DNA of 29,296 bases from a virus, in UHGV virus genome UHGV-0080837. The stretch is one strand, 5' to 3'. Below are positions 5,131 through 27,079 of this stretch, one piece after another (within the stretch, counting starts at the first letter, position 1; each line of letters begins with the position of its first letter). The translations under genes were made by a program, and so were the position numbers. The notes under the pieces were generated by a model. It ran no database searches, was not told where the DNA came from, and saw nothing but the letters and a program-made list of their open reading frames with translations.

Positions 5131-5164
5131 AAAAAGCCCGCCAGGTCTGGCGGGCTTCTTTATG
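5131..5164. terminator. bidirectional intrinsic terminator between convergent operons
   Basis: Stem GCCCGCCAG (5136-5144), loop GTC, CTGGCGGGC (5148-5156), flanked by AAAAA upstream and TTCTTTAT downstream. Sits between the + stop at 5123 and the - stop at 5169. Confidence 0.65.
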
Positions 5165-12484: not shown

Positions 12485-12527
12485 AATGCATACCGACTCT
12501 GTTTTGTTCCGAGTGGTAAAATAATAT

Positions 12528-12558
12528 GTTAGAAAACTAAAATCAATATTCTAACGCA
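12528..12558. promoter_or_regulatory. operator dyad with leftward promoter-like elements (internal promoter)
   Basis: TGTTAGAAAA (12528-12537) and TTCTAACGCA (12549-12558) in inverted orientation. Minus-strand TTGATT and an AT-rich -10-like hexamer overlap it. Confidence 0.4.
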
Positions 12559-12581
12559 TTTTGAGTGCGTAAATGATTTGA

Positions 12582-15613: not shown

Positions 15614-15658
15614 ATATTAATGTTTTGTGTTAGAAAATCAATTTTGAATATCTAACCA
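15614..15658. promoter_or_regulatory. divergent promoter region with operator dyad
   Basis: Dyad TGTTAGAAAA (15628-15637) and TATCTAACCA (15649-15658). On the minus strand TTGATT, a 16-nt spacer and TAATAT form a good sigma70 promoter with a half-site in the spacer; a rightward TTGAAT -35 overlaps the other half-site. Confidence 0.5.
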
Positions 15659-15705: not shown

Positions 15706-16284
15706 ATGCAGAAACAGAGCTATTGGGAGAAACAGAGACAAAAAGCCATGCAAAAATTGGCTGACCCAGCCTGGCGAGAGGAACAAAGGGCAAAGCGCCT
15801 TCAACAAGCTCAACGCCAGCAGCAACGAGCGAGAGAAAAAGCCGCATCGCCTGAATATCGGCAAAAGAGAATTGAAAAAGCAAAGCAATATGACCAGCGG
15901 AGAAAAGAGAAAGCTGTATCCACTCCGTCCAAAAAAACACGCACGTCACGCGGCCTGAAGGGCAGATCACTCACAGCCGATGAACGCCGGATACAGACCG
16001 CTATCGGTACTCTCCCCTGCATTGCCTGCCATATTCACGGGCAACATAGCCCAGTGGTATCCCTGCACCATATCTTCGGGAGAACGGCAGAGAACGCGCA
16101 TAAATATGTCCTCCCTTTGTGTAAATGGCACCACCAGTACGCAGCGCCAGCCGAGGTCCGAGAACAATATCCCTGGCTGGTCCCTGTTCATGCTGACGGA
16201 AAAATAGGCGGAAAAGCAGATTTCATGCGGCACAATGCCGATGAAATGGCGTTGTATCAGATGGCGATTGAATTGATAAATTAG
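15706..16284 (+). CDS. ref: Ref-like HNH-family nuclease (P1 recombination enhancement function type)
   Basis: 192-aa ORF with a long, highly charged K/R/Q/E-rich N-terminal region followed by a Cys/His core (CIACHIHG ... SLHHI ... LPLCKWHH), matching the known architecture of P1 Ref. AAGAGG RBS. Confidence 0.55.
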   Translation: MQKQSYWEKQRQKAMQKLADPAWREEQRAKRLQQAQRQQQRAREKAASPEYRQKRIEKAKQYDQRRKEKAVSTPSKKTRTSRGLKGRSLTADERRIQTAIGTLPCIACHIHGQHSPVVSLHHIFGRTAENAHKYVLPLCKWHHQYAAPAEVREQYPWLVPVHADGKIGGKADFMRHNADEMALYQMAIELIN

Positions 16285-16296
16285 TTTTCTAACATT
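16273..16296 (+). promoter_or_regulatory. promoter-like element with operator half-site, start of the immI-like region
   Basis: TTGATA then AATTAGTTTTCTAACAT; the 15-mer TTAGTTTTCTAACAT is shared with the minus-strand promoter at 12528-12546. Confidence 0.4.
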
Positions 16297-16615
16297 TTAA
16301 GTTGAATTGAAAAATGCTCCGATGTACATTCACTACCCATTGGCACACCGGTCAACTTTTTGAGACAAACTATTTAGTTTTTCGTATGATTGCCGCCGCC
16401 ATACCAATGGCGGTGCAATATAGGTGGCTGAAAAGCCCCCGTTGACTCACGGTGTTCCAGCCTTTATTGCGCCGCCACCAGACCGTGGAACAGTCGATGG
16501 CGGCTCCGAAAGCAAGGAGTCACTACACTATGAACAGCTACTGTCTTTTCCCATCACTCGTTGTCCGCCACTCACGCGATAATCTGCATTCTTTACTCGC
16601 GCTGGGGGTGTCAAA

Positions 16616-16783: not shown

Positions 16784-16888
16784 AATACTGACTGTTGCGC
16801 CCTGACATTATCGTGGGGTATATTTCTACGGCACCTTAGAAAAACGGGTGCCGGGATTGGTCTCCCGGTAATGTCAAAGGCGACACAT

Positions 16889-16916
16889 AGACGCCACAAG
16901 CGTCTTTTTTGTTGTC
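16889..16916 (+). terminator. hairpin plus T-run (attenuator or terminator-like) inside the immI-like leader
   Basis: AGACGC CACAA GCGTCT followed by TTTTTTGTT at 16889-16913. Confidence 0.35.
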
Positions 16917-16924
16917 GGCGCACT

Positions 16925-17010
16925 CGCACACCTATCAATGGTGGGCTGTGTGGTGGCTTCTTCGGAAGCGCCGGTTCCCTTTGACGCCGGTAAGACCAAC
17001 TCCACACAGT
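16925..17010 (+). ncRNA. c4: candidate c4-like antisense RNA (P1 immI type); boundaries approximate
   Basis: Contains CCCTTTGAC (16977-16985) and AGACCAA (16994-17000), antiparallel complements of GTCAAAGG and TTGGTCT, which occur twice downstream/upstream as direct repeats. Also a GCUUC-UUCG-GAAGC tetraloop hairpin (16956-16969). Confidence 0.4.
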
Positions 17011-17074
17011 CCACCGCCAGTAAGATTGGTCTCTTCGGCGGTGGTATCGTTCACTGTCAAAGGAGGCTGCCAAT

Positions 17075-18267: not shown

Positions 18268-19143
18268 CTAGTCCTGCTGACAATTCAGGAACATAAACGC
18301 ACGTTTGTCCGTTAAATCCGTAACATAATATTCACGAATACCATTCGGTTTTATGCGGCGAGCATACACAAACTTATGAACTGGCTGGTCGCTGCCATAA
18401 CTAACCTCAGTGCGAAATTCATCGACCGTGCTACCATCCTTTTCTGTCTCTTTGCGTATCAGCTTATTGTTCAGAACTGGTTGAGTCTCATCCATTCCGC
18501 TAAATGCATCTTGCCCGGTACTATTACCCCGGTTGCCACGTGGTAAATCCCACGAGAAATAAGTCCCATAGTCTGTAATTACCTGATCCCACGCCCCGGC
18601 TTCATCCATATAATGACTACGCTTCCCTTGGTATGTTACGTCAACCTTACAGGAAAACGTTGGCGCGCTATTACTTGCAGCAGAGGCCGTTGAAGATTGT
18701 GTAACACTGCCATTGTTGGCATTTCCATAGTTCCAGCCATCATGCAACGCTTTAACCCACAGATTAGTCAGGGATAGCGTAACATCATTCCCCAGCGCCT
18801 GGCTGATTCGAAGCCTCTGTATCCGACGCAACCCATACTCATAGGCTTCATCGTCATTAATCACTCGCCCACGTTGAGCGGCTACCACCCCAGATTGCCA
18901 CGCACGATTAATTTCACGAATAAGATACACTTGTGGATCAACTCCGTATCTGTTGTATTCATAGTAAAGGCTCATTGCGCCATGTTGGCTCTGGTATTCA
19001 TTAGCCCATGATATAACCGCGTTTCTTCCATAATCCGCGAGCGCAGAATGACTTGACAGAAGAAGAGCAACGCCAACAGTCTTCAGTAATTTGAATCGGA
19101 ATAACTTTTTAATAATACGATTGGGAAATATGTTTTTGCTCAC
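18268..19143 (-). CDS. secreted protein of unknown function (signal peptide), moron-like
   Basis: 291-aa ORF on the opposite strand to its neighbours. N-terminus KLLKTVGVALLLSSHSALA is a Sec signal; Ser/Thr/Asn-rich middle. Own upstream region at 19144-19370. Confidence 0.5.
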   Translation of the reverse strand: MSKNIFPNRIIKKLFRFKLLKTVGVALLLSSHSALADYGRNAVISWANEYQSQHGAMSLYYEYNRYGVDPQVYLIREINRAWQSGVVAAQRGRVINDDEAYEYGLRRIQRLRISQALGNDVTLSLTNLWVKALHDGWNYGNANNGSVTQSSTASAASNSAPTFSCKVDVTYQGKRSHYMDEAGAWDQVITDYGTYFSWDLPRGNRGNSTGQDAFSGMDETQPVLNNKLIRKETEKDGSTVDEFRTEVSYGSDQPVHKFVYARRIKPNGIREYYVTDLTDKRAFMFLNCQQD

Positions 19144-19371
19144 TTTTCAACCTTTCACCACAAATCAAGACTAACAACCCAATAATAATAACTAACCACT
19201 CTGTTTTTTTGATAAGCACCAAATCGTTTACAAAAAAAATAGCAAATGACTATTGACACTATTCTGGAAATCACAAACTGCACATAATCCATCGCGCTAA
19301 CGGCTCCCGTTGAAGGTTCTTTTGACGATTAACTTTCAGCCGAAGCGCGGTAGGGAGTCATAACGCCAAAG

Positions 19372-19397
19372 CAGGCCGCCATGTGCGGCCTTTTTTT
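19372..19397 (+). terminator. intrinsic-terminator-like hairpin plus T7 in the leader of the 19425 gene
   Basis: AGGCCGC CATGT GCGGCCT followed by TTTTTTT, ending 27 nt upstream of the ATG at 19425. No + strand gene lies upstream. Confidence 0.5.
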
Positions 19398-19424
19398 GTA
19401 TCCGTCATCCGTGGAGGAAGGACA

Positions 19425-20078
19425 ATGGAAAAGATCGCAATATTCAGCCTGACCACCAGCAAGCCTCAAATGCTCACTGCAATACTGAAAGACGGTGCTC
19501 TCATTATTAACGAAGTAAAACCCCTTCCCGCGTCAGCATTGGAGCAAAAGCAAAAAATTCCTCCAGCTATAGCAGCCCTGCGGAAAAGCAAATTTAAGGT
19601 ACTGGTAGACGAAATTACGCCAACGATCTCCGCTGGCACCGGAGCAAGTCAGGTGACTCTCAAGACCCGTCATGCCGATGGTAGAGCAGCAATCATCGTC
19701 GGGATGGAAAGATACAGAGAGTTAAAACTCCAGAAACTATTATCCCTGCCGCAAAATAACAAAGGTGCTTTCGAAATCCCCGACTCTATCGTTGATACCG
19801 AATACAATGGTAACGGAGAAGAAGTCTACCGGGTGAACTGGCAGGACATCAGGCCGGAACATATTCTTATGATCCTGTGTTGCTACGCGACCGTATACCA
19901 CAACGTTGCCAGTGCGGATTACGTAGAGCAGATGACCGGCGCAGTCGAGAAAGAGCAAAAAACAGGCATACTCGCTTCGTTCCTGTCCATTATTGGGCAT
20001 GAAAAAGTTGAAGCAGGCACCTCCCAGCCAAAGTCACTGGCTGGGAAAGAAGTTGATGAAGATACCGTGATACTTTGA
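19425..20078 (+). CDS. hypothetical protein
   Basis: Start moved to the ATG at 19425 (GGAGG 5 nt upstream), inside track ORF 19383..20078. 217 aa, no family recognised. Confidence 0.5.
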   Translation: MEKIAIFSLTTSKPQMLTAILKDGALIINEVKPLPASALEQKQKIPPAIAALRKSKFKVLVDEITPTISAGTGASQVTLKTRHADGRAAIIVGMERYRELKLQKLLSLPQNNKGAFEIPDSIVDTEYNGNGEEVYRVNWQDIRPEHILMILCCYATVYHNVASADYVEQMTGAVEKEQKTGILASFLSIIGHEKVEAGTSQPKSLAGKEVDEDTVIL

Positions 20079-20406
20079 TCACATTAGTAGCTTTGTTAAC
20101 TCCCTCAATACCAGGTAGAAGAGTAACAAAAATATTGACGCCAGTATTTGCGTGGTCAATGAAGCGTTCATAAACAGATCAATTAGCATTAATAATTCGA
20201 ATATAACATCCATGTCATTCACTCCGTTTAATTTTTAATCTAATGCCAGCAAATGAAGCTGGCCCCCGCACAAAGATTAATGAAAGTCACTTGTCACCAG
20301 TGAGGGGATTTATGAACCACATCCCCCTGAACTGGTGGCCTGTCTGTTTCTCACATTTCACACCCTGCATACAGTTTCCCCCAGGTTATGACTGAGAGGC
20401 TTTGTT

Positions 20407-27035: not shown

Positions 27036-27079
27036 CCAATTGTGTTAGATAATTGAATAGAATTTTCTAACACAATTGG
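27036..27079. promoter_or_regulatory. perfect 14-bp inverted repeat operator overlapping the rdgC promoter
   Basis: CCAATTGTGTTAGA (27036-27049) and TCTAACACAATTGG (27066-27079) flank a 16-bp spacer containing TTGAAT; ends 6 nt before the rdgC ATG. Confidence 0.55.

Follow-up and report, generated by a model that had tools for sequence, protein, structure and literature searches.

What is a strong intrinsic terminator doing immediately in front of a gene, in an intergenic region that no rightward gene precedes? The question arises in a 29,296-nucleotide stretch of viral DNA (UHGV virus genome UHGV-0080837; hereafter "the window"), in which an earlier note made from the sequence alone had described a 7-bp GC-rich hairpin followed by T7 and ending 27 nt before the ATG at 19425. 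Two explanations had been offered there: that a short rightward RNA of roughly 100 nt is made and terminated at this site, or that the hairpin attenuates transcription of the downstream gene. Inspection of the sequence and terminator scans confirm the hairpin, its T7 and its distance from the ATG, and the upstream neighbor (18268–19143) does lie on the minus strand.

The window is a P1-related, D6-like phage-plasmid; around the hairpin, its sequence matches phage D6 and approximately 120 plasmids of Escherichia, Salmonella, and Shigella, and the matches are always on plasmids. The downstream gene is mat (Table 1), whose product is 98.6% identical to D6 orf78 and 33% identical to P1 Mat; it matches PHROG 1837, a profile of length 212 with unknown function. 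No Pfam family covers Mat, we found no solved relative for it, and a scan of the genome collection for Mat returned one locus only. In P1, mat has been reported to be essential, on the basis of amber mutants (PMC10695390).

Table 1. Features of the mat leader region, in window coordinates
Feature	Position	Strand	Description
TTGACA hexamer	19253–19258	+	Start of the block that all D6-type plasmids conserve
D6-type late promoter motif	19268–19288	+	Box AAATCACAAAC (19268–19278), 4 nt, −10 CATAAT (19283–19288)
Predicted leader/small RNA, ~103 nt	19295–19397	+	Start placed 7 nt past the −10; 3′ end in the U-tract
Predicted three-way junction	19302–19359	+	Outer stem GGCUCCC (19302–19308) with GGGAGUC (19353–19359)
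Seed UGAAGGUUCUUUUGACG	19311–19327	+	5′ arm and loop of hairpin A; best-conserved core of the leader
Intrinsic terminator	19373–19397	+	Stem AGGCCGC/GCGGCCU, loop CAUGU, U7
mat (maturation control protein, 217 aa) with Shine-Dalgarno GGAGGAAGG	19413–20078	+	Homology to D6 orf78 and P1 Mat

The terminator and its genomic setting

The hairpin AGGCCGC-CATGT-GCGGCCT (19373–19391) has seven pairs, six of them G-C, around a 5-nt loop, with a predicted energy of −13.1 kcal/mol, and the first T of the T7 (19391–19397) doubles as the closing base of the stem. A strong Shine-Dalgarno sequence (19413–19421) lies in the 27 nt that separate the T-tract from the mat ATG. When the full length of the window was scanned under strict criteria (perfect 7-bp stem containing six or more G-C pairs, and six or more T in the next eight bases), two sites emerged, this one and a bidirectional one at 5135–5156, and a consensus terminator scan also lists the site at 19373–19397; comparable terminators were absent from all 100 dinucleotide-preserving shuffles of the window. 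Every D6-type relative that we found retains the hairpin. In the Enterobacter type, the stem carries a compensatory change from G-C to A-U and the loop is different, and other stems and loops occupy the equivalent place in L073, Pantoea, Serratia, and P1 (L073, like L076 and L144 below, is our label for a lineage). With its G+C-rich stem, short loop, U-tract, and compensatory change, the element has the hallmarks of an intrinsic terminator. The site at 5135–5156, which has T-runs on both strands, is the sole other strong intrinsic terminator in the window.

The gap of 27 nt is too short to accommodate a promoter and contains no promoter motif, so transcription can be expected to reach mat only when it reads through the terminator. 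The attenuation envisaged in the earlier note thus follows from the anatomy of the locus, and the two explanations given there are not mutually exclusive.

Homology to D6 and to the approximately 120 plasmids starts exactly at 19253. The minus-strand gene at 18268–19143 (291 aa, signal-peptide-like N terminus, PHROG 13054, no Pfam family), together with the adjoining 110 nt of intergenic DNA, is confined to a few plasmids. The slot upstream of 19253 holds variable cargo, being occupied by simB in D6 and by other genes elsewhere, and the breakpoint at 19253 marks a cargo hot spot beside the mat leader. In the Escherichia coli plasmid pUTAK-19-1 (CP157128.1; L007, 2501–2598), a natural deletion starts within the leader, at about window position 19350, and takes out the rest of it together with the terminator and the entire mat gene. 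Among Klebsiella and Raoultella, large IncF resistance plasmids contain a remnant made up of ref, the leader, the terminator, mat, gene 26, and gene 25, for example in Klebsiella pneumoniae pM169-3.1 (NZ_CP063879.1; L515, 5187–8099); in this remnant, the leader and hairpin are intact and no capsid gene is nearby.

A conserved leader and its late promoter motif

The sequence from 19253 to 19397 forms a noncoding unit that is conserved through the T-tract in all D6-type relatives and precedes each D6-type mat that we found. The leader core is 85–90% identical between the window and the Enterobacter plasmid, while mat coding DNA is mostly 60–80% identical, and the corresponding values for the EC361 type are 93–97% for the core and ~70–88% for mat. 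Taken together, the core is at 85–97% identity and the mat coding DNA at ~70–78%; judged by these alignments, the noncoding block is better conserved than mat itself. The order leader-terminator-mat, with the terminator ~20–30 nt from mat, is also found in L144, L073, and L076, whose Mat proteins are 57%, 53%, and 36% identical, respectively, and recurs in Leclercia, Pantoea, Citrobacter, and Serratia plasmids.

Near its upstream end the unit contains a late promoter motif, in which the 4-nt spacer between the box AAATCACAAAC and CATAAT is TGCA. The same box, followed by four nucleotides and a hexamer, is also found upstream of the D6 late operons (capsid, R, lydA, portal, pmgB, gene 7, and lysozyme), at the places of annotated late promoters in P1. 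In P1 late promoters, a 9-bp box, AAGTNACTT, is separated by 4 nt from a −10 hexamer. No P1-type box is found in the region 19144–19424; as far as the motifs can be compared, the D6 and P1 elements are alike in architecture and spacing and different in recognition sequence. D6-type late promoters have the consensus AAATCACAwAC-N4-hexamer in place of the P1 box (D6 genome, L199/L200; positions 19268 and 23775 in the window), and a third box, CAAAGTACAAAC, precedes both mat and the capsid gene in the L073, Leclercia, and Pantoea lineages and is also used in Citrobacter, a pattern suggesting that the late activator and its site co-diverged between lineages. From this comparison of motifs, we would assign the promoter to the Lpa class and regard the leader as a late transcript of ~103 nt that starts near 19295. 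As this class is late (lytic), the RNA is expected after induction or infection and not in a quiescent lysogen.

A sigma-70 promoter was considered and rejected, because the TTGACA at 19253 is 24 nt from CATAAT, which is too far, and a consensus scan lists no promoter here. P1 has a TTGACA at the equivalent relative place, annotated as Pmat. Further downstream, a perfect P1-type late-promoter motif (AAGTGACTT-tcat-TAATCT) lies at 20292–20274 on the minus strand and points leftward; it is upstream of a 47-aa hydrophobic ORF (20079–20222, PHROG 38362) and would run antisense into mat. This motif may be a chance match, as D6-type late promoters use another box.

The leader RNA is predicted to fold into a three-way junction, whose outer stem encloses hairpin A (19311–19338) and hairpin B (19339–19351), followed by a linker and the terminator. 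The same predicted architecture is found for the leaders of P1, the window (D6-type), and Leclercia, and the consensus fold includes six pairs with compensatory changes; in the outer stem, the alternatives between lineages are GGCU:AGUC, GGUU:AGCC, and GGUU:AACC. None of the 4,227 Rfam models matches the region at gathering or permissive thresholds. Membership of the leader in the isrK family was rejected on a best score of 14.7 bits (gathering threshold 50, E = 1.6), with the terminator alone aligning.

Other identities for the leader were rejected as well. A riboswitch or classical attenuator was set aside because neither folds nor inspection revealed an antiterminator helix competing with either arm of the terminator. 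The lone candidate for a leader-peptide attenuator is a 17-codon ORF with a TTG start (19310–19363), which has no Shine-Dalgarno sequence, and in the alignments every difference within it in the Enterobacter and EC361 types is nonsynonymous. As a possible RfaH ops site (GGCGGTAGnnTG, non-template strand), the leader offers CGCGGTAGGGAG, which matches at 9 of 12 positions, not beyond chance, and the Enterobacter type has GGTTGG at the ops-like position. Finally, an unrelated viral contig (IMGVR_UViG_3300033076_000522; L032, 6585–6612) shares a 26-nt identity with the leader core inside a gene of 342 aa. We rejected it as a relative of the leader, given its coding location and lack of common context; the match is unexpected for a 22-base pattern, yet it is probably due to chance.

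The leader also sheds light on the annotation of P1, whose record places a late promoter, LPmat, 20 nt before the annotated mat CDS. Within the first 38 annotated codons of P1 Mat lie both a long outer stem (CGCCCGGUAC...GUACCGGGCG) and a terminator whose hairpin, AGCCGCC-GCU-GGUGGCU, runs into UUUCUUUUUU; after the terminator come a Shine-Dalgarno sequence and an ATG at 2828, where the alignment with D6-type Mat begins. Among P1 relatives, the G-run between the terminator and this ATG varies (GGGG or GGGGG), and as a length change of one G would shift the frame of the long ORF, we argue that the N-terminal extension of P1 Mat is noncoding. The extension is most likely the same leader, a reading also supported by the 212-residue PHROG profile, and the annotated Mat start at 2716 (AF234172.1, 2716–2827) is probably in the noncoding leader, with the true start likely being the ATG at 2828.

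Complementarity between the leader and the capsid mRNA

All 17 nt of the leader seed can pair with the 5′ end of the D6 mRNA for the major capsid protein (gene 23), where a perfect complement occupies 54101–54118. The complementary site lies directly downstream of the capsid late promoter, at approximately +1 to +17 of the mRNA and 28–44 nt before the GTG. The capsid gene is outside the window; we identified the target in D6 and in the nearest relative with both loci, in which the leader is identical, Mat is 100% identical to that of the window, and the same perfect complement is present. A complement of 17 nt is the longest that the leader has elsewhere in the D6 genome, and such a length was reached by 1 of 300 shuffled leaders.

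We examined co-variation in pairs of leader and capsid sequences from the same genome, which represent few, related lineages and were aligned by hand without gaps. At the 17 positions, the D6/window type has 17 Watson-Crick pairs, the EC361 and Shigella dysenteriae types have 16 plus one G·U each, and Enterobacter has 14 plus three G·U; Leclercia has 15 Watson-Crick pairs and two mismatches, L073 has 14, one G·U, and two mismatches, with two double changes, and Pantoea has three consecutive double changes (UUC:GAA to AAU:AUU). Over the eight gap-free lineages, 95.6% of the seed-target cells pair and double changes are found in 5 of the 17 pairs; slid registers give 39–53%, and 500 shuffles all fall short of the observed values for both pairing and score. 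Wherever seed and target differ by a transition, the difference is compatible with G·U pairing. In L076, Serratia, and P1, the sequences are divergent and complementary again within each genome, with lineage-specific pairs such as UCGACG:CGUCGA in L076 and GGAUCCCUUUUC:GAAAAGGGAUUC in P1, and in a cross-lineage energy matrix the cognate pairs are usually the most stable. The duplexes of the L073, Leclercia, and Citrobacter lineage include an internal G·A mismatch, and the P1 duplex has only 13 bp. As judged from these comparisons, the leader has the conserved, co-varying seed by which a trans-acting base-pairing small RNA is recognized.

Some further signals were not used. We do not rely on a second block of complementarity (GCGCGG in the leader, CCGCGC in the target), which is short and G+C-rich and does not run colinear with the main helix. 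Duplex prediction on the full-length RNAs gave over-extended duplexes that were discarded, and two pattern scans for the capsid site in distant genomes retrieved only the leader itself or chance matches.

The predicted structure of the capsid mRNA leader places the complementary site next to the start codon. Folded alone, the capsid leaders of five lineages have a predicted free 5′ stretch of ~12 nt followed by a stem formed by the 3′ portion of the target site and the region of the GUG start codon, with an inner hairpin between its arms; the seed therefore spans both the free 5′ stretch and the 5′ arm of the stem. Across 12 lineages, this structure is 96.8% paired, a value reached by none of 500 shuffles, and includes two compensatory pairs, one of which couples a leader base to the second codon. 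When the two RNAs are folded together, an intermolecular helix and an unpaired GUG are predicted for D6 (gain −17.6 kcal/mol), Enterobacter, and L076. In the L073 cofold, only the free 5′ stretch pairs, and the P1 cofold is dominated by pairing with the U-tail, an artefact.

Proposed mechanism, alternatives, and related systems

From the terminator and its conservation, the promoter motif, the fold, the seed-target complementarity, and the start-codon stem, the last two with their co-variation, all of which computation establishes, we propose that the terminator closes a late small RNA that pairs with the capsid mRNA and opens its start-codon stem, while read-through supplies mat; we put the probability of this reading at roughly 0.6. 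During lytic growth, the Lpa-class promoter would give a rightward RNA of ~100 nt that ends at the hairpin and folds into the three-way junction and terminator, with the loop and 5′ arm of hairpin A exposing the 17-nt seed. The seed would pair with the first 17–19 nt of the gene 23 mRNA, itself a late transcript, and the pairing would open the stem over the GUG and allow capsid translation, thereby helping to start capsid synthesis late in infection. Read-through transcripts would serve as the mat mRNA, so that the hairpin would also set the level of Mat. The rightward RNA of ~100 nt envisaged in the earlier note thus gains computational support from the late-promoter motif, the conserved block, the fold, and the co-varying seed, and the leader RNA is likely to be a base-pairing small RNA produced by termination within the leader. 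We infer that this RNA is made and ends here and that both RNAs meet in the cell; the effect on the capsid mRNA would be activation, a direction that we take from the predicted structures alone.

The pairing could also have the opposite outcome, with the capsid mRNA being repressed or decayed, for example through RNase III cutting the duplex of 17–19 bp. A duplex at the extreme 5′ end of the mRNA could create a processing site, and known phage antisense RNAs of similar size, such as OOP, Sar, and C4, are repressors. We nevertheless consider repression doubtful, since the start codon is hidden by a conserved stem whose 5′ arm overlaps the target, the cofold predicts that pairing frees the GUG, and a repressor of the main structural protein, made from the same class of promoter at the same time, is harder to rationalize. 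The main rival for the complementarity itself is that the 17-mer is a binding site in the DNA, located just downstream of two late promoters and recognized by a single protein such as Mat or a different late regulator, with RNA pairing as a side effect. Both copies are indeed within ~35 bp downstream of late-promoter motifs, and co-variation would be equally expected for two copies of one operator. However, the copies are oppositely oriented relative to transcription, the site is not palindromic, and no other late promoter has the 17-mer motif. Moreover, transition differences always place a leader G against a target U or a leader U against a target G (seven cells), differences that RNA pairing tolerates and that DNA identity does not predict. 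With the seed located in a hairpin loop of a conserved, terminator-ended RNA fold and the target forming the 5′ arm of a conserved start-codon stem, we regard a shared DNA site as decidedly improbable.

The leader might instead act only in cis, as an attenuator that limits or times mat and is perhaps relieved by an antitermination factor, the RNA being a by-product without function in trans. Some attenuation is unavoidable with a terminator 27 nt before mat and no promoter between them, but attenuation on its own leaves unexplained both the conservation of the leader core beyond that of mat and its co-variation with the capsid leader in at least eight lineages, and no alternative antiterminator pairing appears by inspection or in the folds, which makes a purely cis-acting leader unlikely. 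That the hairpin is a relic or chance terminator without present function is hardly credible: although the upstream cargo is variable and a homology breakpoint is nearby, no comparable site arose in 100 shuffles, and the hairpin is conserved, with compensatory change, in lineages down to 33% Mat identity.

The proposed late small RNA that opens the capsid start-codon stem resembles several known systems in part and, by sequence, belongs to none of the StxS, IsrK, C4, or DsrA types. IsrK of the Gifsy-1 prophage (RF01394) has a short form that activates translation by pairing upstream of the start site, and, as proposed for the mat locus, it combines a short terminated small RNA with a longer read-through mRNA; the mat leader is not a member of this family, whose true representative in the window is elsewhere (16831–16910). 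C4 of P1/P7 (RF01695) resembles the proposed mat-leader RNA in being a structured RNA of a P1-type phage whose loops pair with a phage mRNA leader for translation control, but it belongs to the immunity region, represses icd-ant, is separate in the window (16934–17021), and has no sequence similarity to the mat leader. A parallel in mechanism exists with DsrA/RprA and rpoS and with synthetic toehold switches, in which a trigger pairs with a free stretch and invades a stem that hides the start site. The capsid leader is predicted to have the same arrangement of a free 5′ stretch and then a stem hiding the start site, and the difference lies in the hidden element, the GUG of a phage capsid gene, and in trigger and target both being predicted late phage transcripts.

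For the origin of the RNA, a precedent is StxS, or lambda 6S RNA, the PR′-tR′ transcript of lambdoid and Shiga-toxin phages, a terminated by-product that is described as a regulatory small RNA (PMC7547250). In these phages, as proposed for the mat locus, transcription from a late promoter is ended by an intrinsic terminator directly upstream of the first late gene, which gives a short RNA, and read-through yields the downstream mRNA. The lambdoid promoter is constitutive, with read-through dependent on the Q antiterminator, whereas the mat leader is Lpa-activated in class, by motif, and no antiterminator is known for it. The proposed target of the mat-leader RNA is the phage's own capsid mRNA, and there is no sequence or Rfam relationship with StxS/6S. 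Neither Rfam nor the P1 and D6 records nor our limited search of the literature yielded a description of the mat-leader RNA. According to a preprint, P1vir virions from an hfq mutant have smaller heads and tails (bioRxiv 10.64898/2025.12.28.696737); we take this as a lead for chaperone-dependent RNA control of morphogenesis and not as evidence for the mat-leader RNA.

P1 is a classical model phage, and phage-plasmids of the P1 and D6 types commonly carry resistance genes in Enterobacterales. Our proposal, if correct, would add an unrecognized post-transcriptional step to a late control so far described by Lpa-dependent promoters, would correct the annotated start of P1 Mat, and would provide a natural, co-evolving pair of trigger and switch that is lineage-specific and possibly orthogonal between distant lineages. 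A broader claim, that the whole P1 supergroup, P1 included, carries a late mat-leader small RNA acting as a natural toehold-type capsid trigger, is more tentative, and we give it somewhat less than even odds; were it true, capsid synthesis would be tied to the mat transcription unit.

The window contains further regulatory elements of P1-type phages. On the plus strand at 16831–17021, Rfam identifies an isrK-like RNA (60 bits) followed by a C4 antisense RNA (75 bits), and the pair sits upstream of icd and antirepressor genes, as expected for the immunity-I region of a P1-type phage. Repeats of TTGTGTTAGAAAAT at 1190–1208, 12522–12564, 15625–15656, 16257–16299, and 27036–27079 resemble the P1 C1 operator ATTGCTCTAATAAATTT and are probably the C1 operators of the window's lineage; such D6-type operator-like repeats are absent from the conserved leader. 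One repeat precedes ref, as Oref does in P1, and the copy at 27036–27079 forms a near-perfect 19-bp palindrome, like a bivalent operator.
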